Shown here piece after piece: positions 3,835 to 14,898 of a stretch of DNA of 14,898 bases. This DNA comes from a virus (taxonomy: Duplodnaviria > Heunggongvirae > Uroviricota > Caudoviricetes): IMG/VR virus record IMGVR_UViG_2663762992_000011. One strand, given 5' to 3'. The notes under the pieces were generated by a model, which searched no databases, had not been told where the DNA came from, and saw only the letters and a program-made list of their open reading frames with translations. Within the stretch, counting starts at the first letter, position 1; each line of letters begins with the position of its first letter. Position numbers and translations under genes: made by a program.

Positions 3835-6591
3835 ATGCGAAACATTGATCTTATCCGTCAGGTTATCAGTGCGTCTGAAAACAACTGGCCTCATGTGCTG
3901 GGCTGCCTGAACATAAATGTCCCTGACTCTCCGCGCCGTCATGCTCCCTGCCCTGCATGTGGGGGCAAAGATCGATTCCGGTTCGATGACAACGGGCGCG
4001 GTAGCTTCATCTGTAATCAGTGCGGCGCTGGTGATGGGCTGGATTTAATTAAACGCGTAAATAACTGCGACACAACAGAGGCGGCGCTGCTTGCCGCTGA
4101 TGTTCTGGGTATTGATTACCGGACAACGGAAACACCAGAAGCCACCAGCCAGAAACGGGAACAACTGGAAACCGAGCGCCAGCGACGCGAACAGGAGCGC
4201 CTGAAAAGGGCGGAGAAGGACGAACAACAAAGACGGGATACGTTTTCCCGTCAGTTTGATGACATGCGCAGAAAGGCTGTAAACGGCAAATCTGATTATC
4301 TGGTTGCGAAAGGGGTAGGTGATTTTACATTCCCCGTGTTGCCCGATGGATCTCTGTTGCTGGCGCTGGTGGATAAATCCGGCGCAGTCACAGCAGCACA
4401 GACTATTACCTCACATGGTGAAAAAAGACTCCTGACAGGTTCAGCAAAGCGGGGGGCATATCACGCCATAAACGCACCAGAAACAACACAGAGCATCTTA
4501 ATCGCAGAAGGGCTGGCAACGGCATTATCTGCCCATTTAATTCGTCCAGAGGCGCTGACAGTGGCGGCGATTGATGCCGGGAACCTGTTATATGTCGCCC
4601 AGGTACTGCGGGATAAATTTCCTTCAGCACAAATCATCATTGCTGCGGATAACGACCACAGCGAAGGAAGACAAAACACGGGGAGAATAGCAGCAGAAAA
4701 AGCAGCTTTATCTGTTTCTGGATGGGTGGCATTACCCCCGACAGGTCACAAAGCAGACTGGAATGATTACCACCAAAAACACGGCATTAAATGCGCCACA
4801 GAAGCGTTCAATAAGTCAATGTACCAACCACAGGGTAATGGCGTGAAACAGGAGCCACAGACCATTGAGGGAAGCGATTTTAAGGTTATGGATACCGACC
4901 CACTGAAACCAAGAATAGAAAGCCGCGAGGATGGTATTTATTGGGTATCTCCGAGAGCTGACAGCCAGAGTGGAGAAATCATCAATAACGAAAGCTGGTT
5001 ATGTTCTCCGTTAAGCGTTATCGGTACTGGCAGAGACGATAAAGACCAGTATCTCATTCTTCGCTGGCTGTCGTTTGGTTCTGAAACGCCGACAACCGCT
5101 GCCATTCCACTGGCTGATATTGGTGAACGTGAAGGATGGCGCACACTTAAAGCTGGTGGGGTAAATGTCACGACCAAAAGCAGCCTCAGAGCAATACTGG
5201 CAGACTGGCTACAACGCAGTGGCTCTCGTGAATTGTGGCGTGTTGCTCATGCCACTGGCTGGCAATGCGGAGCGTACATCATGCCTGATGGGGAAATCAT
5301 CGGAACACCTGAAAATCCTGTGCTGTTCAGCGGGAGAAGCTCAGCCGCAGCCGGATATACCGTCTCAGGGAGCGCGAAAAGCTGGCGTGATAACGTGGCG
5401 CGTCTGGCCTTTGGTAACTATTCAATGATGACCGGGATCGGCGCAGCACTGGCAGCGCCATTGATTGGGCTGGTGGGCGCTGACGGGTTCGGCATTCATT
5501 TCTATGAGCAGTCGAGCGCGGGTAAGACCACCACGGCAAACGTGGCGAGCAGCTTATACGGCAACCCTGATTTACTGCGGCTGACGTGGTACGGAACCGC
5601 GCTGGGGCTGGCAAATGAGGCCGCCGCCCACAATGACGGATTAATGCCGCTTGATGAAGTTGGTCAGGGCGCTGATCCTGTCAGCGTTTCACAGTCTGCC
5701 TATGCGTTATTTAACGGTGTAGGGAAACTGCAAGGCGCTAAAGATGGTGGAAACCGGGATCTAAAACGCTGGCGTACAGTGGCAATCAGCACCGGAGAAA
5801 TGGATTTAGAAACATTTATCGCTACTTCCGGGCGAAAAACCAAAGCCGGGCAACTGGTGCGACTGCTGAATATTCCGTTGAGTAAAGCAGTACGCTTTCA
5901 CGATTACCAGAACGGAAAACAGCACGCAGACGCACTGAAAGACGCTTACCAGCATCACCATGGCGCAGCCGGGCGTGAGTGGATTAAATGGCTGGCAGAC
6001 CACCAGCAACAGGCTATTAAAACTGTTCGTGATTGCGAAAGCAGATGGAGAAGCCTGATCCCATCCGATTATGGTGAGCAGGTTCACCGTGTAGCCGCGC
6101 GATTTGCCATTCTGGAGGCCGCATTGTTGTTAGGCGAGGTTGTAACAGGCTGGGATGCTCAGACATGCCGTGATGCGATACAGCACAGCTATAACGCATG
6201 GTTGCGCGAGTTCGGCACAGGTAACAAAGAGCATCAGCAGATTATTGAACAAACGGAGGCATTTCTTAATGCCTATGGGCTTAGCCGTTTTGCACCATTT
6301 CCATACACCCCGGCAGATTTGCCCATCAAAGATTTAGCCGGATACCGTCAGCGTGGAGAACATGACGAAAGTCCAATGATTTTCTACACATTCCCGGCCA
6401 CATTTGAAAAGGAGATCGCATGTGGTTTCAACGCAAAACAGTTTGCTGAAGTGTTGAAAAAAGCCGGGATGCTAACCCCACCAAACAGCGGTCGTGGATA
6501 CCAAAGAAAATCACCACGTATTCAGGGACGACAAATAAACGTTTATGTACTCAATTACCAGCCAGGAGATTACAACTCATCTGAAGAATGA
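3835..6591 (+). CDS. P4 alpha-like DNA primase-helicase (zinc-ribbon + Toprim + P-loop NTPase, 918 aa)
   Basis: N-terminal CxxC...CxxC zinc ribbon (CPACGG...CNQCG). Toprim-like motifs (ILIAEG ... IIIAADNDHSEGRQNTG with a DxD). Walker A-like SSAGKTT and Walker B-like LMPLDEVGQG in the C-terminal half. RBS-like GGGGG before the ATG at 3835. Iterons lie immediately downstream. Confidence 0.9.
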   Translation: MRNIDLIRQVISASENNWPHVLGCLNINVPDSPRRHAPCPACGGKDRFRFDDNGRGSFICNQCGAGDGLDLIKRVNNCDTTEAALLAADVLGIDYRTTETPEATSQKREQLETERQRREQERLKRAEKDEQQRRDTFSRQFDDMRRKAVNGKSDYLVAKGVGDFTFPVLPDGSLLLALVDKSGAVTAAQTITSHGEKRLLTGSAKRGAYHAINAPETTQSILIAEGLATALSAHLIRPEALTVAAIDAGNLLYVAQVLRDKFPSAQIIIAADNDHSEGRQNTGRIAAEKAALSVSGWVALPPTGHKADWNDYHQKHGIKCATEAFNKSMYQPQGNGVKQEPQTIEGSDFKVMDTDPLKPRIESREDGIYWVSPRADSQSGEIINNESWLCSPLSVIGTGRDDKDQYLILRWLSFGSETPTTAAIPLADIGEREGWRTLKAGGVNVTTKSSLRAILADWLQRSGSRELWRVAHATGWQCGAYIMPDGEIIGTPENPVLFSGRSSAAAGYTVSGSAKSWRDNVARLAFGNYSMMTGIGAALAAPLIGLVGADGFGIHFYEQSSAGKTTTANVASSLYGNPDLLRLTWYGTALGLANEAAAHNDGLMPLDEVGQGADPVSVSQSAYALFNGVGKLQGAKDGGNRDLKRWRTVAISTGEMDLETFIATSGRKTKAGQLVRLLNIPLSKAVRFHDYQNGKQHADALKDAYQHHHGAAGREWIKWLADHQQQAIKTVRDCESRWRSLIPSDYGEQVHRVAARFAILEAALLLGEVVTGWDAQTCRDAIQHSYNAWLREFGTGNKEHQQIIEQTEAFLNAYGLSRFAPFPYTPADLPIKDLAGYRQRGEHDESPMIFYTFPATFEKEIACGFNAKQFAEVLKKAGMLTPPNSGRGYQRKSPRIQGRQINVYVLNYQPGDYNSSEE

Positions 6592-6616: not shown

Positions 6617-6727
6617 GTTGGTTCAGTTGGTTCAGTTGGTTCAATTTGTAAAGAGTATTGTTTTATAAGGATTTTATTCTTTTTATTGAACCAACACTGA
6701 ACCAACAACACGGTATTTTGAACCAAC
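6617..6727. repeat. Iteron cluster 1 (candidate replication origin / crr-like site)
   Basis: Three tandem GTTGGTTCA (6617-6625, 6626-6634, 6635-6643), an AT-rich spacer (6644-6687), then three inverted copies TGAACCAAC (6688-6696, 6698-6706, 6719-6727). Located 26 bp after the primase stop. Confidence 0.75.
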
Positions 6728-7046
6728 ACAATGTGACTGAATTGATGCGCACAACACCTGGCTGGCATCAGAGAGTGTTTTACGAGACTTTCGTAAAATC
6801 CTGTGTACAAGGGCGTGACGTTTTGAAAGTGAGCAATACGAAATTTTCGTAGTTCAGAAAACAGCCCCTGAGAAGTTGTTATGCCTGTTCAGCAAACCAT
6901 CCGCATAGCTGATCGCGAATCAAATTACCAATGGAGTCAGAAGCAAGGGCAGAACTGAAAAGCGCCTGCCGTGAAGAGTAATGCGACACCATAAATATAG
7001 TTTTTAGAGTCCATAAAAAACCTGTCAAAACCTGACATACAGAACG

Positions 7047-7079
7047 ATGCCACCAGCTACTGAACGGTGGCATTTTTTT
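7047..7079 (+). terminator. Rho-independent terminator (ATGCCACC ... GGTGGCAT followed by a T-run)
   Basis: 8-bp perfect stem, 11-nt loop, six T residues (7074-7079). Confidence 0.6.
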
Positions 7080-7143
7080 GTGCTATTTGTTTCATGTTTT
7101 GCAATCATAATGATGAATGTTGCGTTTTATGAAACTATAATGA

Positions 7144-7159
7144 CTGTTGTTTTATACAG
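7144..7159. promoter_or_regulatory. LexA-box-like site CTGT-N8-ACAG (CTGTTGTTTTATACAG)
   Basis: Perfect CTGT/ACAG half-sites with an 8-nt T/A-rich spacer, 16 bp upstream of the ATG at 7175 and just downstream of a TATAAT hexamer (7136-7141). Resembles known SOS boxes such as uvrB-type; heterology index not computed. Confidence 0.35.
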
Positions 7160-7174
7160 TTCTAAGGGGGCATT

Positions 7175-7348
7175 ATGGCTATTTCAGTAAAGCCAGTATT
7201 GATAAGTGAGAAGCAAATGGAAGCGATAAAGAAAATTCAGGAGGAGCAGCGTAAAAAATCAGAGGTAGGAGTTGCGCCAACGATCCACGAAATTGCTCGG
7301 GGATTAATGGATAAGGCGCTGGCTTACACTTTAACTGGACGTGGGTAA
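7175..7348 (+). CDS. Small protein (57 aa), possibly a ribbon-helix-helix-type regulator; absent from the ORF track (below size cut-off)
   Basis: Strong RBS AAGGGGG 4 nt before the ATG at 7175, stop TAA at 7346-7348. Product MAISVKPVLISEKQMEAIKKIQEEQRKKSEVGVAPTIHEIARGLMDKALAYTLTGRG has a strand-helix-helix-like pattern. It directly precedes the large two-gene cargo operon. Confidence 0.45.
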   Translation: MAISVKPVLISEKQMEAIKKIQEEQRKKSEVGVAPTIHEIARGLMDKALAYTLTGRG

Positions 7349-7352
7349 ATTT

Positions 7353-8819
7353 ATGGCTACGTGGCAACAGGGTATTAATTCTGGTGGTTTTCTGGCTGGC
7401 ATTGGTGCGCAAAACGAGAATGCGCCAAAGGCAAGCGACATTAACACAACGCTTGGTCTGATCCGCGAAAACAATGAACTGGCTCGATCAGGTGCAAATA
7501 ACGTTGGTCTGACCGCGTTACGTGGTCTGGCTGGAGTTGCTGATATTTATAAGCAGCAGCAACAGCAGGAACGTAAAGCGGCATTCCAGAAAGGTTATGC
7601 GGATGCTTATGCGTCCGGCGACAGGGAGCAGATGCGTAATCTTATTACAGCATTCCCCGAAGAGTTTGAGGAAGTTCGTAAAGGCATGGGGTATGTCGAT
7701 GACGCCCAGCGGAATGATTTTGGCAATCTGGCGCTTAAGGCTCAGGTCGCTTCGTCGCTTGGTCCGGGTGCATTTGGCAGGTTCATGATGGATAACGAAA
7801 AGGAGATGCGTCGTTTAGGTATCCCTCCAGAAACTATTGCTGAAATGCAGGTTAATGACCCGCAGGGCTTCCAGCATTTCGCAGGTAATCTGGCGCTGTT
7901 TTCTCTCGGTCATGAGAAGTACTTCGATATCAAAGATCGAATGGAAGGTCGGGATATTGAGCGTGGCAAGTTGGCAGAAACAATCCGCAGCAATCAGGCT
8001 GGCGAAGCACTTCAGGCGAGAGGGCAGGATATTAGCCGAGCAAATGCGTTAACGTCAGCATATGCACCAACAGCAGCAATGCAGAATTACAATCAGTACG
8101 CTCAAATGTTAAAGGCGGATCCAGAGGGGGCGGCGGCATTTGCGGCAGCGGCTGGAATTAATACAAACGCCAAAAAATTAATGAGTGTTAGAGAAAACGA
8201 TGATGGCACTGTCACAAAATACTACACAGACGGAAGTGAAGAGCATGGAAAACTAAACCAGCCAATATCTGGAGATGGGTTTCGTCCAATAGCTTTGCCA
8301 ACAGCCCAAAAGATCATGGAAAAGTCGCCAGAAGGGGCTAAAAAAGCTGCTGGATTTGCATACAGAGTTAGGGATGCTCTTGATTCAATGGATACACTGA
8401 AAGGCCAGCTTAGCCCACAGCGAGTGGCGATCATTAATAATGCTTTGGGTAATGGGACGCTGGCTAACTTAACGCTCAGCCCAACAGAGCAGCAATACGT
8501 TGTTAATGCTAATGACGCAATAATGGCAATACTCCGTCAGGAAACAGGGGCAGCTATCGTACCTGCTGAAATGTCAAAATATTATCAAATGTATTTCCCT
8601 CAGCCTGGCGACTCCACAAAAACCATTGATACCAAGCGCCGGAAGATGGAAAACCAGTTCAATTCGCTGAAAGCTGCTTCTGGTCGAGCTTATGATGCTT
8701 TGCGGGTTATTTCAGCAGTTGACAGAGGGACTTCTTCTTCGTCGCAGACATTGCCGCAATCTGAGCAGGTATCACAGCCAGCAGCCAGCAGTAATTTTTC
8801 TTCACTATGGGGTGATTAA
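7353..8819 (+). CDS. Hypothetical protein (488 aa), Ala/Gln-rich, no recognised domain
   Basis: Long ORF (track 7341..8819; ATG at 7353 preferred). Its stop overlaps the start of the next gene (TAATGG). Composition is low-complexity and helical-looking with an S-rich C-terminus; no catalytic motif noticed. Confidence 0.7.
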   Translation: MATWQQGINSGGFLAGIGAQNENAPKASDINTTLGLIRENNELARSGANNVGLTALRGLAGVADIYKQQQQQERKAAFQKGYADAYASGDREQMRNLITAFPEEFEEVRKGMGYVDDAQRNDFGNLALKAQVASSLGPGAFGRFMMDNEKEMRRLGIPPETIAEMQVNDPQGFQHFAGNLALFSLGHEKYFDIKDRMEGRDIERGKLAETIRSNQAGEALQARGQDISRANALTSAYAPTAAMQNYNQYAQMLKADPEGAAAFAAAAGINTNAKKLMSVRENDDGTVTKYYTDGSEEHGKLNQPISGDGFRPIALPTAQKIMEKSPEGAKKAAGFAYRVRDALDSMDTLKGQLSPQRVAIINNALGNGTLANLTLSPTEQQYVVNANDAIMAILRQETGAAIVPAEMSKYYQMYFPQPGDSTKTIDTKRRKMENQFNSLKAASGRAYDALRVISAVDRGTSSSSQTLPQSEQVSQPAASSNFSSLWGD

Positions 8820-10924
8820 TGGCTAAAGCATGGAAAGATGTTATCGCCTCTCCACAGTATCAGGCGTTAGCACCAGAGCAAAAAGCGCAGGCTCAGGAGC
8901 AATACTTCAATGAAGTCGTGGCCCCGCAAGCCGGAGAAAGTGTAGAGCAGGCTAAGCAGGCTTTTTATGCTGCCTATCCACTACCATCAACGAATGAAAT
9001 AGACCGATCCCAATCAGCAACTCAAAATATTCAACATACATCATCTGATAATTCTCTTGCGTCAGGGTATGCAAAGTTAGCTACTCAGCAAAGAGAGGGG
9101 CTTGAGCGTTCAGCAGAACAGGGAGCCAGTCTTGGGGCTGCTATGCGCGATGCTATAACAGGCGAAAGCCGAATGACTCCAGAGATGGAGAGACTGCAAA
9201 ATGTCGACCTTGCCCCAGAGTTAACCTCACTCAGCATGGATGCTCTAAAAGCTCGATGGTCTCAACTTTTCGGCTCTGACGCATCTCAGGAAAAGATTCT
9301 TCAGAGCATGGGAGCGAAATTAAGGCAGGATGAGAAGGGTAACACTATCGTTTCCCTGCCATCCGGTGATTATGCTCTGAACAAGCCGGGTTTATCGCCG
9401 CAAGACGTGGCATCGTTTCTGGCTAATGCGCTGGCGTTTACACCAGCGGGCAGGGCTGGAACGGTGCTTGGTGCCATAGGAAAATCAGCAGCTACAGATT
9501 TAGCACTACAGGGAGCCACCAGCCTTGCTGGTGGAGAAGATATTGATCCGTTACAAACGGTAATTTCTGCTGGCATTGGTGGTATTGGTAAGGGGCTGGA
9601 AAATACAGCGAGTGCGGTTTCGAGGGCTGTTCGTGGTGATATGTCGCCTGAAGCAAAGGCTGCTGTCAACTTTGCATCGGAAAGAAATCTGCCGTTAATG
9701 ACCAGTGACATGCTGAAAGATAAAACCTTTATGCAGAGTCAGGCTCAGACATTAGGCGAAAGAGTTCCTTTTTTTGGAACCGGTAAGAATCGGCTGAATC
9801 AACAACAAGCACGAGAAAATTTAGTCAGAACATTTAGCGATGGTCTGGGTGGCATTTCTGATAAACAGCTTTATGAATCTGCGACTAAAGGGCAACAAAA
9901 ATTCATTGAGGCAGCAGGAAAGCGATATAACCGCATAATTGACGCTATGGGGGATACCCCTGTCGATCTCTCAAACACGGTAAAAGCTATCGACAATCAG
10001 ATTGCCGTGTTAAGCCGCCCGGGAAAATCTCAGGATAGAGCCGCGGTAAAAGTCTTGCAGCAATTTAAAGACGATATCACCAGCGGACCAAATGACCTGC
10101 GTCTGGCGAGGGAAAACAGAACCGATCTTCGAAAGCGATTTATGGCGTCATCTGACACTGTTGATAAAGATACGCTCCAGAAAGCCAGCGATATTATCTA
10201 CAAGGCATATACGGCGGATATGAAAAAAGCCGTAGCCAAAAATCTTGGAGCAGACGAAGCCATTAATATGGCAAGGGTTGATCGCTCATGGTCTAAATTC
10301 AATGACATGATGGGAAGAACGCGCGTTCAAAAGGCAATAGCCAGCGGCAAGGCCACGCCTGAGGATGTAACAAAACTCGTTTTTAGCCAAAGCCCATCAG
10401 AACGTTCTCAGCTTTACAGGCTTCTGGATGACAATGGTAGGCAAAACGCACGAGCAGCCATAGTTCAGAATGCTGTAGATAAGGCGACTGATCCGTCTGG
10501 AAATATCAGTGTTGAGAAGTTTATTAATGCGTTACACCGGAACAGGAAGCAATCAGCAACTTTCTTTAAAGGCGTACATGGAAAGGAACTGGACGGCGTT
10601 ATTAAATACCTCAACGATACAAGACACGCGGCAAAAGCGAACGTTCAAAACTTAAATGGTCAGCAGCTTTATGGATTGTTAGTTGGTGGTGGCATCATAA
10701 ACGCAGCAGTATTAGCGGGGATGCTAAAAACGGCTGCGTTTGTTGTTCCTGCTGCTGGTGCCGTAGGCGGAGCCGCGAAGGCATACGAAAGCCCTGTTAT
10801 ACGAAATGCCTTGTTACGTCTGGCAAATACGCCAAAAGGTAGCACAGCATATGACAGAGCGATCAGTACGGTCACACAATCACTGACCACAGCAGCACAA
10901 GCATCGCAAAAGGAAGCTCAATAA
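8819..10924 (+). CDS. Hypothetical protein (701 aa) with a C-terminal Gly/Ala-rich hydrophobic hairpin-like segment
   Basis: Long ORF coupled to the upstream gene. Near the C-terminus, LLVGGGIINAAVLAGMLKTAAFVVPAAGAVGGAA forms two hydrophobic Gly/Ala-zipper stretches split by KT. The rest is hydrophilic and Ala/Gln/Lys-rich. No family recognised. Confidence 0.75.
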   Translation: MAKAWKDVIASPQYQALAPEQKAQAQEQYFNEVVAPQAGESVEQAKQAFYAAYPLPSTNEIDRSQSATQNIQHTSSDNSLASGYAKLATQQREGLERSAEQGASLGAAMRDAITGESRMTPEMERLQNVDLAPELTSLSMDALKARWSQLFGSDASQEKILQSMGAKLRQDEKGNTIVSLPSGDYALNKPGLSPQDVASFLANALAFTPAGRAGTVLGAIGKSAATDLALQGATSLAGGEDIDPLQTVISAGIGGIGKGLENTASAVSRAVRGDMSPEAKAAVNFASERNLPLMTSDMLKDKTFMQSQAQTLGERVPFFGTGKNRLNQQQARENLVRTFSDGLGGISDKQLYESATKGQQKFIEAAGKRYNRIIDAMGDTPVDLSNTVKAIDNQIAVLSRPGKSQDRAAVKVLQQFKDDITSGPNDLRLARENRTDLRKRFMASSDTVDKDTLQKASDIIYKAYTADMKKAVAKNLGADEAINMARVDRSWSKFNDMMGRTRVQKAIASGKATPEDVTKLVFSQSPSERSQLYRLLDDNGRQNARAAIVQNAVDKATDPSGNISVEKFINALHRNRKQSATFFKGVHGKELDGVIKYLNDTRHAAKANVQNLNGQQLYGLLVGGGIINAAVLAGMLKTAAFVVPAAGAVGGAAKAYESPVIRNALLRLANTPKGSTAYDRAISTVTQSLTTAAQASQKEAQ

Positions 10925-10985
10925 CAGATGACCATGGATGGTTGGTTATAATAGTAATTAGTATTTTTTCAAATAGTTATGAACA

Positions 10986-11384
10986 TTAACACTTGCCTTT
11001 AACATTGCCGACAAATGAGCCTGTAAATGAGCCTATATCAGATCGACTAATTGTTCGTGTATGGATCACTTTTCCGTCATTTGAGATTGCCCATGTGACA
11101 AGCGTCAGTTGACCATCTCGATAGCTTCTCCCCATCATGGCATTCGGAGATAGCGGGTAATAATCAATACCTCCACCTATACCATCTTTTGCCAAGATAA
11201 GATCCGCCTTCTCTTTACTTATTACCAAATGAAATGTATCTGGTATAGATGATAACTTATAGTTATACCCATCTGAACTTGAGGCTTCTTGTCCTTTCAG
11301 ATCACCAATAATCCAGCATTCAGCGTTCGCTCCAAAAGAAGCAAATAATAAACCGGAGACAACCAATCGCTTCAATTGATTCAC
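10986..11384 (-). CDS. Small secreted (signal-peptide) protein, about 132 aa precursor, function unknown
   Basis: Minus-strand ORF (track 10986..11453). Preferred start is GTG at 11384, preceded by AAAGGGAGGG with a 5-nt spacer, giving a textbook signal peptide MNQLKRLVVSGLLFASFGANA followed by ECW. AT-rich gene, convergent with the 701-aa gene. Confidence 0.55.
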   Translation of the reverse strand: MNQLKRLVVSGLLFASFGANAECWIIGDLKGQEASSSDGYNYKLSSIPDTFHLVISKEKADLILAKDGIGGGIDYYPLSPNAMMGRSYRDGQLTLVTWAISNDGKVIHTRTISRSDIGSFTGSFVGNVKGKC

Positions 11385-11500
11385 ACCAACCCTCCCTTTA
11401 GCGTTGTTTAGAATGGCAATCATCATATATCCAAGACATGGCATTTGGTACATAGCTTGGGTCGGGATTTCAAATCCGCTCCCAGTTGATGGGGCCGTTA

Positions 11501-11935
11501 CAGTACGCGCATATCCGCTTTATGTGAAACAGGAAGATTTTTCTGATATCACTGCCACAGCAAAACACCAATTTCGTGACCAGTACGCGCGCGAGGGGTA
11601 TCAGTTGCAAAAATTTTGCAACTACGTCCGACCAGTACGCACACAATGGCGGGGAGCACCATAAAAGCGTTCTCTACATGAGACAGAGTGGTGGTGATGT
11701 GTTGATTATCGGCGTATATGCGCACAGGACGCGCTATGACAATGTTTTATGCGGGTACACCAATCACATGTATCTGGTGTGATAAATCGCGTTACATGAC
11801 ATCTCATGTTGTGCTGGTGGTTATAACGACGTTCTGAATCTGGCCTTTGCCTGATATTTTGCGACAAGTACGCGCGCGTAGCATCGACAGCATACACATT
11901 GGATATTCATTTTGTGACCAATGCGATAAGTAGCG
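11501..11935. repeat. Dispersed family of about 20-bp repeats (approx. ATTTyGyGACCArTACGCGCGCG); a further copy at 13502-13527
   Basis: Copies at about 11501-11512, 11572-11593, 11626-11642, 11857-11880 (containing the perfect palindrome TACGCGCGCGTA) and 11910-11935, plus 13502-13527. On the minus strand several copies translate to variants of the C-terminus (...LIPLxxxLVTK) of the small ORF 11907..12065. Confidence 0.4.
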
Positions 11936-12065
11936 GGATAAGAATTGATAAAATCAACAGGACGATGATCCACTTTTGATTTTCACTGGCCTTATATCTA
12001 TTTTCATCAATCTTATCAATAATTCGACGCTCTAAGCCGTGCATATCACCGCGAATGGCAATCAT
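11907..12065 (-). CDS. Small tail-anchored membrane protein candidate (52 aa); absent from the ORF track (below size cut-off)
   Basis: Minus-strand ORF MIAIRGDMHGLERRIIDKIDENRYKASENQKWIIVLLILSILIPLLIALVTK: charged N-terminal half and one C-terminal hydrophobic helix. Weak RBS; the start codon is uncertain. Confidence 0.3.
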   Translation of the reverse strand: MIAIRGDMHGLERRIIDKIDENRYKASENQKWIIVLLILSILIPLLIALVTK

Positions 12066-12207
12066 CTCATTGCGAACATCCGAGAAGTGGTTGGCTTAAT
12101 GTTCAATGTGTGGCGTTCTGCCTTTCATGCCTGATCCTCACCTATCGTCACCACCTGCTGGTGTATAAAGGTATTGGCCCAAGCAGCTTTCCAATGGGCA
12201 CTCATGT

Positions 12208-12663
12208 TTATACGCTGACCTTACAATCAATCACCGCTTTTAACTTTTCAGCATTGCTTCCCTGACGCTTCCACGCGCTGTAAATATCTTTATCCCACGC
12301 TTTACCAGCTTTTGTTTGATAGCCTGCTTCATTGATCCGTTCAGCTATCACACGCCCATTATCAAATCCCTGTCGAATGGTATCGGCAATGATCTTTATA
12401 ACTGCCGTTTCGTTATATGGTTTTGGTGGGATGTTCGGCTTTCCGGCAATAAGCGACGCAGCGGCTTTTTCCATGCGCTCCACCAGCCCAAGCATTCGTG
12501 AATCAATAGACTTTTCCGGCTGCCCCAGCTTCATGCGAATCGCATCAACAAGCCAGGAGGTTTTATCTCCTCCAGAAGCGAGAACAGACCGATTAAACTC
12601 ATCCTGCAATTCAGATGGGATGCGGAACGCGACCAGATTAGATTTGCTCATTGCAAAGACCAT
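12208..12663 (-). CDS. Ribbon-helix-helix DNA-binding protein with a C-terminal extension (about 147-151 aa)
   Basis: N-terminal SNLVAFRIPSELQDEFNRSVLASGGDKTSWLVDAIRMKL fits the RHH (Arc/CopG-like) strand-helix-helix pattern. The C-terminal IAERINEAGYQTKAGKAWDKDIYSAWKRQG resembles the DNA-binding helix motif seen in recombinase-type domains (tentative). Start is ambiguous between ATG 12663 and ATG 12651. Confidence 0.6.
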   Translation of the reverse strand: MVFAMSKSNLVAFRIPSELQDEFNRSVLASGGDKTSWLVDAIRMKLGQPEKSIDSRMLGLVERMEKAAASLIAGKPNIPPKPYNETAVIKIIADTIRQGFDNGRVIAERINEAGYQTKAGKAWDKDIYSAWKRQGSNAEKLKAVIDCKVSV

Positions 12664-12680
12664 ATCAGTGAGTAATATCC

Positions 12681-12712
12681 ATACAGTATACCACTGTATA
12701 ACACTGTTATAC
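12681..12712. promoter_or_regulatory. Operator-like repeats upstream of the RHH gene (ACAGT-N5-ACTGT inverted repeat plus direct ACTGT(T)ATA repeats)
   Basis: ACAGT (12683-12687) and ACTGT (12693-12697) are inverted; ACTGTATA (12693-12700) and ACTGTTATA (12703-12711) are direct. They sit in the leader of the minus-strand RHH gene. Confidence 0.3.
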
Positions 12713-12765
12713 GCTCAAATATCAGCCAGAAAATAACGGACCAATCACAAATCTATCGCTGTGTT

Positions 12766-12886
12766 GTTGGTTCAGAGCTGGGCTGTGTTGGTTCAAAATG
12801 AGTTGATGTTGGTTCAATATTTTAGAAAAAACACAATAAAAACAACGCTCTTTACAAATTGAACCAACTGAACCAACTGAACCAAC
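12766..12886. repeat. Iteron cluster 2 (candidate crr/ori-like site), mirror image of cluster 1
   Basis: Three spaced GTTGGTTCA (12766-12774, 12787-12795, 12808-12816), an AT-rich spacer (12817-12859), then three tandem TGAACCAAC (12860-12868, 12869-12877, 12878-12886). This is the reverse-complement arrangement of cluster 1. Confidence 0.75.
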
Positions 12887-12922
12887 ACCTTTTTGCTTAT
12901 CTATATAATCTGAGAGGCAGAA

Positions 12923-13210
12923 ATGATAAGGGACAGGAAAGCTGAAGAGCTGGAGTCAAAAGGGCTATACCGGAGAGCTGCCGCACGATGGGCAGAAGTC
13001 ATGATGCTGGCAGATGGCGATAAAGAACGTGAACATGCAGCAAACAGACGCTCTGAATGTATCCGTAAGGCGGCACGCCCACCAGCAACTACAGACAGAT
13101 TCGGAGATTTAAGACAGGCAGTTAAGCGAACTCATTCGGCTCTTGGTATGGATGAGGAAGCGAGAGGGTACTTCAGGCGTTATCGCGATAAAGATTGCCA
13201 GAGACAGTAA
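12923..13210 (+). CDS. PerC-family-like small transcriptional regulator (95 aa; tentative)
   Basis: MIRDRKAEELESKGLYRRAAARWAEVMMLADGDKEREHAANRRSECIRKAARP matches my recollection of the PerC-family N-terminal pattern (AEELE..GLYRRAA.RW). RBS-like GAGAGG precedes the ATG. Confidence 0.55.
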   Translation: MIRDRKAEELESKGLYRRAAARWAEVMMLADGDKEREHAANRRSECIRKAARPPATTDRFGDLRQAVKRTHSALGMDEEARGYFRRYRDKDCQRQ

Positions 13211-13364: not shown

Positions 13365-13886
13365 TCATCGTGCAAATTTGCACTCTGCCAGCCAACGCAT
13401 TTTTTCGTTGGCGGGAATATCAGGTATTTACTGATTCTGCCGACTCACAAGGATGCGAGAACCTTATAAAACCTAATATCGCAGAGCTTAATTGTGTACA
13501 GCAATTTCACGAGCAATACGCGCGCACAGGACAACGAGCCTGAACATGGTTACACACCTCAATCATGAGGGATGTAGGTAATGGCTTCAGACCAAAGCAA
13601 CCAAAATAGCTTCGGCCAGCGCGTAAAACGCTCTTGGTAGAAACTCGATGAACTGGATGATGAGCACAACACAAGAAGAATTGTGATTATCACAATAGAG
13701 GCAAAATTATGCCCACACCTTCAATTGCGCGGATAACACCAGAAAAAACTGTGTACATAAGGGTGTACATAATCAAAAACCGCATTAGAAAGAAACCAGC
13801 TACAATGCGGCATTGAAGCCAATACTCTACAAACAGATCCAACATTGAATAACTCGTAACGCCAATTCTTCCTTTTCAGCCTTCAC

Positions 13887-13920
13887 AAATGCCGCCCACT
13901 CAAACAGAGCGGCATTTTTC
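13887..13920 (+). terminator. Rho-independent terminator (AAATGCCGC ... GCGGCATTTTT)
   Basis: 7-9-bp stem with a 13-nt loop and a T-run, about 150 bp upstream of dinD. No + strand ORF lies directly upstream, so it may terminate an unannotated transcript or mark a junction. Confidence 0.5.
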
Positions 13921-14010
13921 CTCCCCGCAACATTCAATTCTGTTTTGCGTGCCTGCTCCAGATTTTGCGATGTTTTTTTGCCCAGCGCAGTGAGAACGTG
14001 AGATACTTAC

Positions 14011-14030
14011 AACTGTATATAAACACAGTT
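14011..14030. promoter_or_regulatory. LexA box of dinD (AACTGTATATAAACACAGTT)
   Basis: CTGT-N8-ACAG with an AT-rich spacer, embedded in a longer palindrome (TACAACTGT...ACAGTTGTA). Near-identical to the dinD SOS box as I remember it. Sits 44 bp upstream of the dinD ATG. Confidence 0.8.
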
Positions 14031-14073
14031 GTAGACTTACTTTCCTTGCAATCGATATCACATGGAGTGGGCA

Positions 14074-14898
14074 ATGAACGAACATCATCAACCTTTTGAA
14101 GAGATAAAGCTGATTAATGCAAACGGAGCAGAACAATGGTCAGCAAGACAACTTGGAAAACTACTGGGTTATTCAGAGTATCGTCACTTTATACCTGTAT
14201 TAACGCGCGCCAAAGAAGCTTGTCTGAATAGTGGTCACACAATTGATGACCATTTCGAGGAGATCCTCGATATGGTCAAAATTGGCTCAAATGCCAAAAG
14301 AGCATTAAAAGACATCGTACTCTCCCGCTATGCCTGTTACCTGGTAGTACAAAACGGCGACCCTGCGAAACCGGTTATTGCGGCAGGACAAACTTATTTT
14401 GCTATCCAGACCCGACGGCAGGAGCTGGCTGACGATGAAGCTTTCAGGCAACTTCGTGAAGACGAAAAGCGTCTTTTTCTGAGAAATGAGTTGAAAGAAC
14501 ATAACAAACAATTAGTTGAGGCAGCGCAGCAAGCTGGGGTAGCGACAGCTATCGATTTCGCCATATTTCAGAATCATGGTTACCGGGGACTGTATGGTGG
14601 ATTAGATCAGAAAGCCATCCATCAGCGGAAGGGGCTGAAAAAGAGTCAGAAGATCCTGGATCATATGGGTTCAATAGAACTGGCGGCTAATCTCTTTCGA
14701 GCTACCCAAACAGAAGAAAAACTCAAGCGGGATGGCGTGAATTCAAAACAGCAAGCTAATACCACACACTTTGACGTGGGTAGCAAGGTGAGGCAAACCA
14801 TTCAGGAACTTGGCGGAACCATGCCTGAGGAGTTGCCGACCCCGCAGGTCAGCATCAAGCAGTTGGAAAACAGTGTAAAAATTACAGAGAAGAAATAG
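14074..14898 (+). CDS. dinD: DNA damage-inducible protein D
   Basis: ATG at 14074 with GGAG RBS gives a 274-aa product starting MNEHHQPFEEIKLINANGAEQWSARQLGKLLGYSEYRHFIPVLTRAKEACLNSGH. Length and N-terminus are consistent with enterobacterial DinD, and it is preceded by a canonical LexA box. Stop TAG is the last codon of the window. Confidence 0.85.
   Translation: MNEHHQPFEEIKLINANGAEQWSARQLGKLLGYSEYRHFIPVLTRAKEACLNSGHTIDDHFEEILDMVKIGSNAKRALKDIVLSRYACYLVVQNGDPAKPVIAAGQTYFAIQTRRQELADDEAFRQLREDEKRLFLRNELKEHNKQLVEAAQQAGVATAIDFAIFQNHGYRGLYGGLDQKAIHQRKGLKKSQKILDHMGSIELAANLFRATQTEEKLKRDGVNSKQQANTTHFDVGSKVRQTIQELGGTMPEELPTPQVSIKQLENSVKITEKK

Follow-up and report, generated by a model that had tools for sequence, protein, structure and literature searches.

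A putative two-armed replication origin split by an accessory module in an EcCIMP1-like phage-inducible chromosomal island

Why would a small mobile element carry two mirror-image clusters of one short repeat, about 6 kb apart, with a block of other genes between them? The question is raised by the viral record IMGVR_UViG_2663762992_000011, a stretch of 14,898 nucleotides that is here called the window in its whole length. A reading of the sequence alone had compared the pair to the origin (ori) and distant auxiliary site of P4, with an inverted-repeat cassette as the alternative. The window is an EcCIMP1-like phage-inducible chromosomal island (PICI) between yicC and dinD, an assignment that follows from the thrW element of Escherichia coli MP1, which has the same primase and the same iteron pair. 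Comparison with related islands makes it very probable that the two clusters are binding arrays for the island's primase-helicase initiator, PriRep, and constitute the separated arms of a PICI origin. That they form a single two-armed origin, split by an accessory module and working as one system, is a further step that we consider probable, with less confidence.

Virulence genes and anti-phage genes move with PICIs, satellites of wide distribution whose origin has so far been treated as a single locus beside rep. In the literature searched, we found no description of a double or split PICI origin; published accounts place a single ori downstream of rep. The PICI origin itself is known, and what we did not find described is its split, mirror-duplicated form bracketing an accessory module, together with a correspondence between a motif of the initiator protein and the iteron. 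The locus also offers a testable case of long-range origin architecture outside P4.

The iteron clusters and the PriRep initiator

The iteron occurs in the window as 12 exact copies in one orientation or the other (GTTGGTTCA/TGAACCAAC), six per cluster in a mirror arrangement and none outside the clusters, and all 12 lie where the sequence-only reading had placed them. With up to one mismatch allowed, there are 17 matches, against 3.6 ± 1.8 in shuffled sequence, and 0 of 200 shuffles reach 17. Cluster 1 begins 26 nt past the primase stop, in keeping with the earlier description of a primase-helicase just upstream. Its left arm opens with a tandem triplet of GTTGGTTCA on the + strand (6617..6643; starts at 6617, 6626, and 6635, a 9-bp period), which is found at the same place in 55+ related loci. 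There follow a 43-bp AT-rich spacer (6644..6686), presumed to be an unwinding element, and three inverted iterons on the − strand (6687..6727; starts at 6687, 6698, and 6719, spaced by 11 and 21 bp). Cluster 2 presents the reverse order, with three spaced iterons on the + strand (12766..12816; starts at 12766, 12787, and 12808, spaced by 21 and 21 bp), a second 43-bp AT-rich spacer (12817..12859), and a right arm formed by a tandem triplet of exact TGAACCAAC copies on the − strand (12860..12886; starts at 12860, 12869, and 12878). The spacers are 84% A+T in cluster 1 and 79% in cluster 2, against 52.6% for the window, and the distance between the mirror clusters is 6.04 kb.

Alignment of cluster 1 with the reverse complement of cluster 2 yields a 46-nt identical block made up of AAAAGGT, three copies of GTTGGTTCA, and ATTTGTAAAGAG. 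Beyond this block the AT-rich spacer has diverged, and the spaced copies are offset by a 10-bp indel. The flank TGTGTTGGTTCAAAAT is common to both clusters, so the similarity claimed for the flanking sequence was borne out. Each cluster consists of three plus three oppositely pointing iterons around an AT-rich spacer, the spaced three being helically phased, and this is the arrangement by which the origins of PICIs and of Staphylococcus aureus pathogenicity islands (SaPIs) are recognized.

The protein encoded immediately upstream fits this arrangement. PriRep, of 918 amino acids (aa; 3835..6591, + strand), has a Zn-ribbon and Toprim primase, a DUF927 helicase, and a C-terminal winged helix. 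Residues 1-340 align with the primase domain of P4 alpha at 34% identity, and the remainder does not align with alpha. The helicase part instead matches the SaPI Rep structure 8tch (E = 1e-11) and the SCCmec Cch helicase, and the fold of the C-terminal domain resembles that of SaPI Rep, as befits a Rep-family helicase with a winged helix. The description of the gene as an alpha-like primase-helicase therefore holds for the primase part and fails for the helicase and DNA-binding domain, which belong to the SaPI Rep family. In SaPIs, Rep forms hexamers that act as a self-loading helicase, and its C-terminal winged helix is the part that recognizes iterons. The SaPI ori follows rep directly on the 3' side; its iterons are opposed across an AT-rich region, where probably two hexamers load (PMC9371898). 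An origin of the same design was reported for Gram-negative PICIs, and the pri-ori segment of EcCICFT073 suffices for plasmid replication (PMC6092414). For the family of the window, a 12.15-kb circular episome in an assembly gives indirect support for such autonomous replication.

If the C-terminal domain reads the iteron, the two should change together, and this is the pattern seen across relatives. The comparison set comprised 77 loci encoding primase relatives, with one genome per species. In about 58 related loci that were mapped, a repeated 9-mer begins 21-47 nt past the primase stop, and among related loci the iterons fall into eight classes. Proteins of the TGAACCAAC class carry GRG[YF]QRKSPR[IV] in 45/45 cases, those of the GAGACAACA class carry GRGYQGRV-RE in 6/6, and the other iteron classes go with other C-terminal motifs, while the helicase core is 85-100% identical between some classes. 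This covariation suggests cognate specificity between PriRep and its iteron, and it lends support to the view, already put forward in the sequence-only reading, that the repeats are probably initiator-binding iterons of a satellite replicon. It also amounts to a predicted specificity code, a C-terminal motif paired with a 9-mer iteron, that could be swapped by experiment.

Behind a near-identical primase domain, one and the same PICI backbone can have a helicase of the DUF927 (SaPI Rep-like) or of the DUF5906 type, as seen when locus L003 (7036-9387) is set against the window (3835-6591). The breakpoint in L003 corresponds to about position 4841 of the window, inside the gene, and therefore helicase, DNA-binding domain, and origin move as one module.

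Origin layouts and the case for joint action

The relatives arrange the same elements in several ways. An asymmetric compact origin of about 260 bp is found in L006-8, L026, L042, and L047, and in L004 with an iteron of the GAGACAACA class. It runs from a tandem triplet through a 43-bp AT spacer, five inverted copies, one forward copy, and a GC-rich element to an inverted tandem triplet; at the right end, the triplet is followed by a conserved flank, ACYWTTTNTGCTTAT..., and then by the next gene. A symmetric compact origin of 310-440 bp, with two AT spacers, occurs in L052, L038, and L051. In the split form, the left half-unit adjoins the primase and the mirror half-unit lies away from it, as in the window, L001, L002, and EcCIMP1. 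Arms 0.95-8.8 kb apart mark 13 further split loci from Cedecea, Leclercia, Lonsdalea, Chimaeribacter, Rosenbergiella, Pantoea, Serratia, and Erwinia. Independent pairs with other iterons are split as well: in L044, with the iteron GGTCGGTTT, 430 bp and one small open reading frame (ORF) separate the arms, and in L003, which has the DUF5906-type helicase, ACCTRTACC iterons form two mirror clusters about 1 kb apart. The validated ori of EcCICFT073 is compact, with outer inverted tandem repeats and a GCCGCGCC element, and its primase and iteron differ from those of the window.

These layouts identify cluster 2. Its outer flank matches the right-arm flank of compact origins and contains no remnant of a primase 3' end, and we therefore take it to be the right arm of the origin. 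The flank itself (ACCTTTTTGCTTATCTATATAAT, 12887..12922, + strand, with TATAAT at 12904-12909) recurs in compact origins, on their right arm. We rejected the possibility that cluster 2 stems from a second, inverted island, as the outer flank is without the primase remnant and matches that of compact origins. The idea of an origin accompanied by a different kind of auxiliary site also has to be given up, because each cluster is a complete PICI ori unit and the arms of the origin are contiguous in many relatives.

Both arms are equally conserved. The information content per iteron position is 1.72 bits in cluster 2 and 1.69 bits in cluster 1, compared with 0.33-0.35 for the inner flanks. The spacer measures exactly 43 bp in 12/14 split loci, in each cluster, with 67-88% A+T. 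Cluster 2 also has traits of its own that are conserved across genera, namely a spacing of 21/21 bp, against 11/21 in cluster 1, which marks it as an old paralogue rather than a recent duplication. No distal cluster was found in compact-origin loci among those mapped for iterons. In an evenly spaced sample of E. coli matches, every genome with a full cluster 1 has at least two places of match (43/43), and the 17 single-place genomes each match only part of the query.

Whether the arms act together is a separate matter. Against the other functional options, the layouts tip the balance toward joint action, because no layout lacks the right tandem triplet, which persists even where it has no AT spacer, and because compact and split forms are mutually exclusive. 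By analogy, it is plausible that the arms cooperate like the ori and crr of P4, in which alpha loops ori to crr. The C-terminal winged helix of PriRep would read the iterons of both arms, PriRep would melt the AT-rich spacer and load itself as hexamers, and the fused primase domain would let it prime as well; the two bound arms would pair by looping, as in P4 ori and crr. The arms would appear as mirror clusters 6.04 kb apart because an accessory module lies between them in this lineage, a module comprising a small conserved ORF, P22-type ejection genes, variable genes, and a regulator that looks, by eye, ribbon-helix-helix-like. A bolder version, in which the center of the origin is a dedicated slot for accessory genes and the arms pair across up to 9 kb with the cargo in the origin loop, is a speculation that we think unlikely. 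Were it true, initiation, copy control, and perhaps cargo expression would depend on long-range contact between the arms, a mechanism like that of P4 ori-crr would operate in an unrelated Rep family, and satellites would have an unrecognized route of cargo capture and exchange.

Several points weigh against an origin whose arms work as one. Two of the single-place E. coli genomes were examined, L003, in which the helicase is swapped, and L084, in which the primase is deleted, and both keep an orphan cluster 2; the cluster can therefore persist, for some time at least, when no cognate initiator is present. Among loci from outside E. coli, 11 with a half-type cluster 1 showed no second one in the 10 kb available. 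The missing partner there may reflect longer cargo, with the anchors far downstream, and direct att repeats did not place the island ends in loci showing only cluster 1. Mosaic boundaries at conserved sequence beside variable cargo are, moreover, expected whatever its function. Finally, since each arm has a full canonical PICI ori unit, either alone might suffice.

This last point leads to the first of the alternatives, that the clusters are two independent, redundant origins, each firing alone and kept for robustness to module exchange or simply neutral. Iterons do stand on both sides of the 43-bp AT-rich spacer in each cluster, the EcCICFT073 pri-ori fragment suffices for plasmid replication (PMC6092414), and an assembled 12.15-kb circular episome of the island family carries both units. 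A second origin would, however, save almost no time on a circle of about 16 kb (an estimate from L002), and the retention of the right triplet in asymmetric compact origins without a second AT spacer suggests a role beyond unwinding. The strict choice between a compact origin and a half-unit with a distal unit also fits complementation better, and redundancy is thus, in our judgment, an unlikely explanation that nevertheless deserves a hearing. We give still less weight to cluster 2 as a regulatory array, limiting copy number by titration or handcuffing or acting as an operator for perC and the 151-aa gene. Iteron plasmids use extra arrays for control, P1 incA and F incC handcuffing or titrating the initiator. 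The right triplet always adjoins the conserved promoter-like flank and then a gene start, and in the window it sits between the divergently oriented 151-aa gene and perC. But the spacer of cluster 2 keeps its 43 bp and AT richness across genera, which neither titration nor an operator would need, and a search for sigma-70 promoters and terminators in the surroundings of the two clusters gave no full promoter for the right-arm flank despite the TATAAT. Nor does either gene depend on the array, given that the 151-aa gene occurs without upstream iterons and perC follows cluster 1 in some islands.

The clusters could also be mere recombination linkers or scars around exchangeable cargo, products of shuffling, inversion, or excision. 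The edges of homology between islands coincide with the inner cluster edges, at 6774 (L003), 12765 (L083), and 12786 (L001, L084), and the cargo between near-identical E. coli clusters ranges from 1.8 kb, in the 12.15-kb circular episome, to 8.4 kb. Several findings stand against this. An inversion junction built from the two 46-nt blocks occurs in 0/550 E. coli genomes carrying these sequences; the 57-aa ORF is always on the + strand and the 151-aa gene always on the − strand relative to the primase, in every locus with them; and Pfam and PHROG scans of the ORFs within 6.6-12.9 kb detected no recombinase or transposase families. Selection acts, moreover, on the iterons and on spacer length, which speaks for protein binding rather than mere homology. 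We regard the linker explanation as very improbable, and the inverted-repeat cassette entertained in the sequence-only reading falls with it. The segment is an exchangeable module bounded by the origin arms, without sign of inversion or transposition, and the arms can serve as a landmark for annotating cargo boundaries in these islands.

Further observations concern the origin region and its variants. A GC-rich element, AAACCCAGTNNTGGCGCGGCCTG (core GCCGCGCC), adjoins the right tandem triplet of asymmetric compact origins (L006-L008, L042, L047; L085, 7183-7215), the validated EcCICFT073 ori among them; in L003 (10575-10600) it is inverted. Of the GC-rich element of compact origins, TGGCGCGGCCTG, there is no convincing copy in the window. 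A different motif, CTGGCTGGCA, lies on the inner side of unit 1 (6758..6767, + strand), at a position kept in most compact relatives, in several split relatives, and in the DUF5906-type module. In the window, it has nine occurrences at up to one mismatch, including 5255 and 7392, where 1.2 are expected, and 0 of 200 shuffles reach nine. The copy about 30 bp inside unit 1 has a counterpart at that place in the unrelated DUF5906 module of L003, and the motif is possibly a priming or host-factor site.

Two records deposited as small non-mobilizable plasmids are really PICIs in circular form. One (NZ_CP148430.1, 12,152 bp, circular; L086) belongs to this island family as a minimal member and has both origin arms. 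The other (NZ_CP069874.1, 15,995 bp, circular; L087) is a Klebsiella PICI that has capsid, portal, and terminase genes; it uses a DUF927 primase, and its 11 GTTGGTTCA iterons are arranged compactly. In Yersinia pekkanenii (L036), there are origin-type clusters at three places, −4.5 kb, 0, and +1.2 kb from the primase stop. The match to the primase there exceeds the usual length by about 1.1 kb, and the primase C terminus has a match in a protein annotated as an HNH endonuclease (P0078). These features point to tandem or rearranged islands, or else to an insertion within the gene.

The island, its genes, and its cargo

About 7-10% of complete E. coli genomes contain an island of this large family, which also occurs in many other Enterobacterales and keeps two full origin units around its accessory module. 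Gene order in complete E. coli genomes runs from int through an AlpA-type regulator, AntA, DUF4222, Ash/Icd, and small ORFs to the primase-helicase, the ejection proteins, and PerC, and the whole element is inserted either between yicC and dinD or at thrW next to proA. The int and alpA genes lie just beyond the window; strain PKF11, whose near-identical island occupies the same site, has both of them there. Mobility of such an island has been demonstrated for EcCIMP1 of E. coli MP1, a PICI shown by experiment to be induced and transferred by the P22-like phage Kapi1 (PMC11773190). EcCIMP1 and its helper Kapi1 are thus a ready experimental system. The EcCIMP1 iteron pair lies at 13021-13141 and 21561-21681 of L083, 8.4 kb apart.

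Upstream of PriRep, ORF and family scans placed an AntA-like protein (493-1326, + strand) and an Ash-family ORF of 355 aa (1495-2562, + strand). Inside the latter, Rfam matched the Hfq-binding RNA isrK (1876-1953, 67 bits) and the C4 antisense RNA (2016-2103, 79.5 bits), both on the + strand. Since relatives annotate a truncated ash followed by an Icd-like gene at this place, the 355-aa ORF may be a fusion or a miscall over a P1/P7-type c4-icd immunity cassette. These two RNAs are the only Rfam matches in the window, with none within 6.6-12.9 kb, and a tRNA scan of the window found none.

Between the arms, a conserved 57-aa ORF (7175..7348, + strand) bounds the variable cargo on the left in nearly all relatives, as established by comparison of loci. 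It is followed by homologues of the P22 DNA-ejection proteins gp20 and gp16 (7341..10924, + strand; Pfam PF16928, E = 7e-85; PHROG 917 and 770; phage matches) and by variable cargo ORFs on the − strand, of 155 aa, with a match to phrog_2651, and of 63 aa (10986..11897). The satellite has no capsid or terminase genes and yet carries full-length homologues of helper-type P22 gp20 and gp16. The gp20 allele is 51% identical to that of the window in L001 and 97% in L002, islands that are otherwise near-identical, and EcCIMP1 has DUF2824 and transglycosylase versions of the ejection genes. The island's ejection proteins may have a role in helper matching or in helper exclusion.

The right anchor of the cargo is a conserved 151-aa protein (12208..12663), always on the − strand and, in compact-origin islands, present without upstream iterons. 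Its N terminus may be ribbon-helix-helix-like, a by-eye reading that no tool confirmed. Between this gene and unit 2, at 12682-12712, lie the overlapping palindromes TACAGTATACCACTGTA and GTATAACACTGTTATAC, where relatives have TGTCTTACACTGTCTTAC repeats; they are likely operators of the 151-aa regulator. The first gene beyond the right arm encodes a PerC-family regulator (12923..13210, + strand; Pfam PF06069, E = 3e-33). The right end of the island is near 13840, and from about 13841 to 14898 the window is filled by the chromosomal core gene dinD, the source of a Pfam Bro-N match. The same 1-kb dinD stretch, identical, occurs in the unannotated "Campylobacter phage" records MG065686 and MG065691, where it looks like contamination.

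Comparison with known systems

EcCIMP1 has in common with the window the island family, the gene order, the iteron, and the split pair, there 8.4 kb apart. It differs from the window in its ejection-protein alleles, its cargo, and its site (thrW rather than yicC-dinD), and its published description is silent on the origin (PMC11773190). With the origins of EcCICFT073 and of SaPI1, SaPIbov1, and SaPI5, the window shares a position directly 3' of pri-rep, opposed short iterons, an AT-rich region, and a winged-helix Rep; the outer inverted tandem repeats are a further likeness to EcCICFT073. The window differs from all of these in having two complete mirror units, each with its own AT spacer, 6 kb apart and with an accessory module between them.

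For P4, the GenBank record places crr ("cis required region for replication") directly 3' of alpha and ori 4.7 kb away, with the same octamer. The crr repeats and ori each have a 35-bp AT-rich spacer (69-71% A+T in crr, 83% in ori) and opposed iterons, and crr and ori are mirror-oriented. Because the P4 record thus contains separated, mirror-oriented iteron units, the P4 analogy is apt at the level of layout, with two separated clusters of one iteron, one of them directly 3' of a fused primase-helicase, 4.7 kb apart in P4 and 6.0 kb apart in the window. It does not extend to the identity of the element, which is a PICI of the EcCIMP1 type. The alpha gene of P4 is located between crr and ori, but the initiator gene of the window stands outside its pair of clusters; P4 crr consists of a 120-bp direct duplication, and a cis requirement has been shown for P4 only. 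The alpha-type helicase and origin-binding domain also stand in contrast to the DUF927/SaPI Rep type of the window, and no families of the P4 genes sid, psu, delta, and epsilon were found among the window ORFs. With a SaPI Rep-type helicase and DNA-binding domain and none of these P4 genes, the system is no member of the P4 group, and both of its clusters are, in addition, complete origin units.

Iteron plasmids supply a more distant parallel. In P1 (incA), in F (incC), and in R6K, where the gamma iterons act on the alpha and beta origins, distant iteron arrays communicate by initiator-mediated looping, much as we envisage for the two arms of the PICI origin. Those arrays are without an unwinding element and are not mirror copies, whereas the second array of the window keeps a full origin unit.

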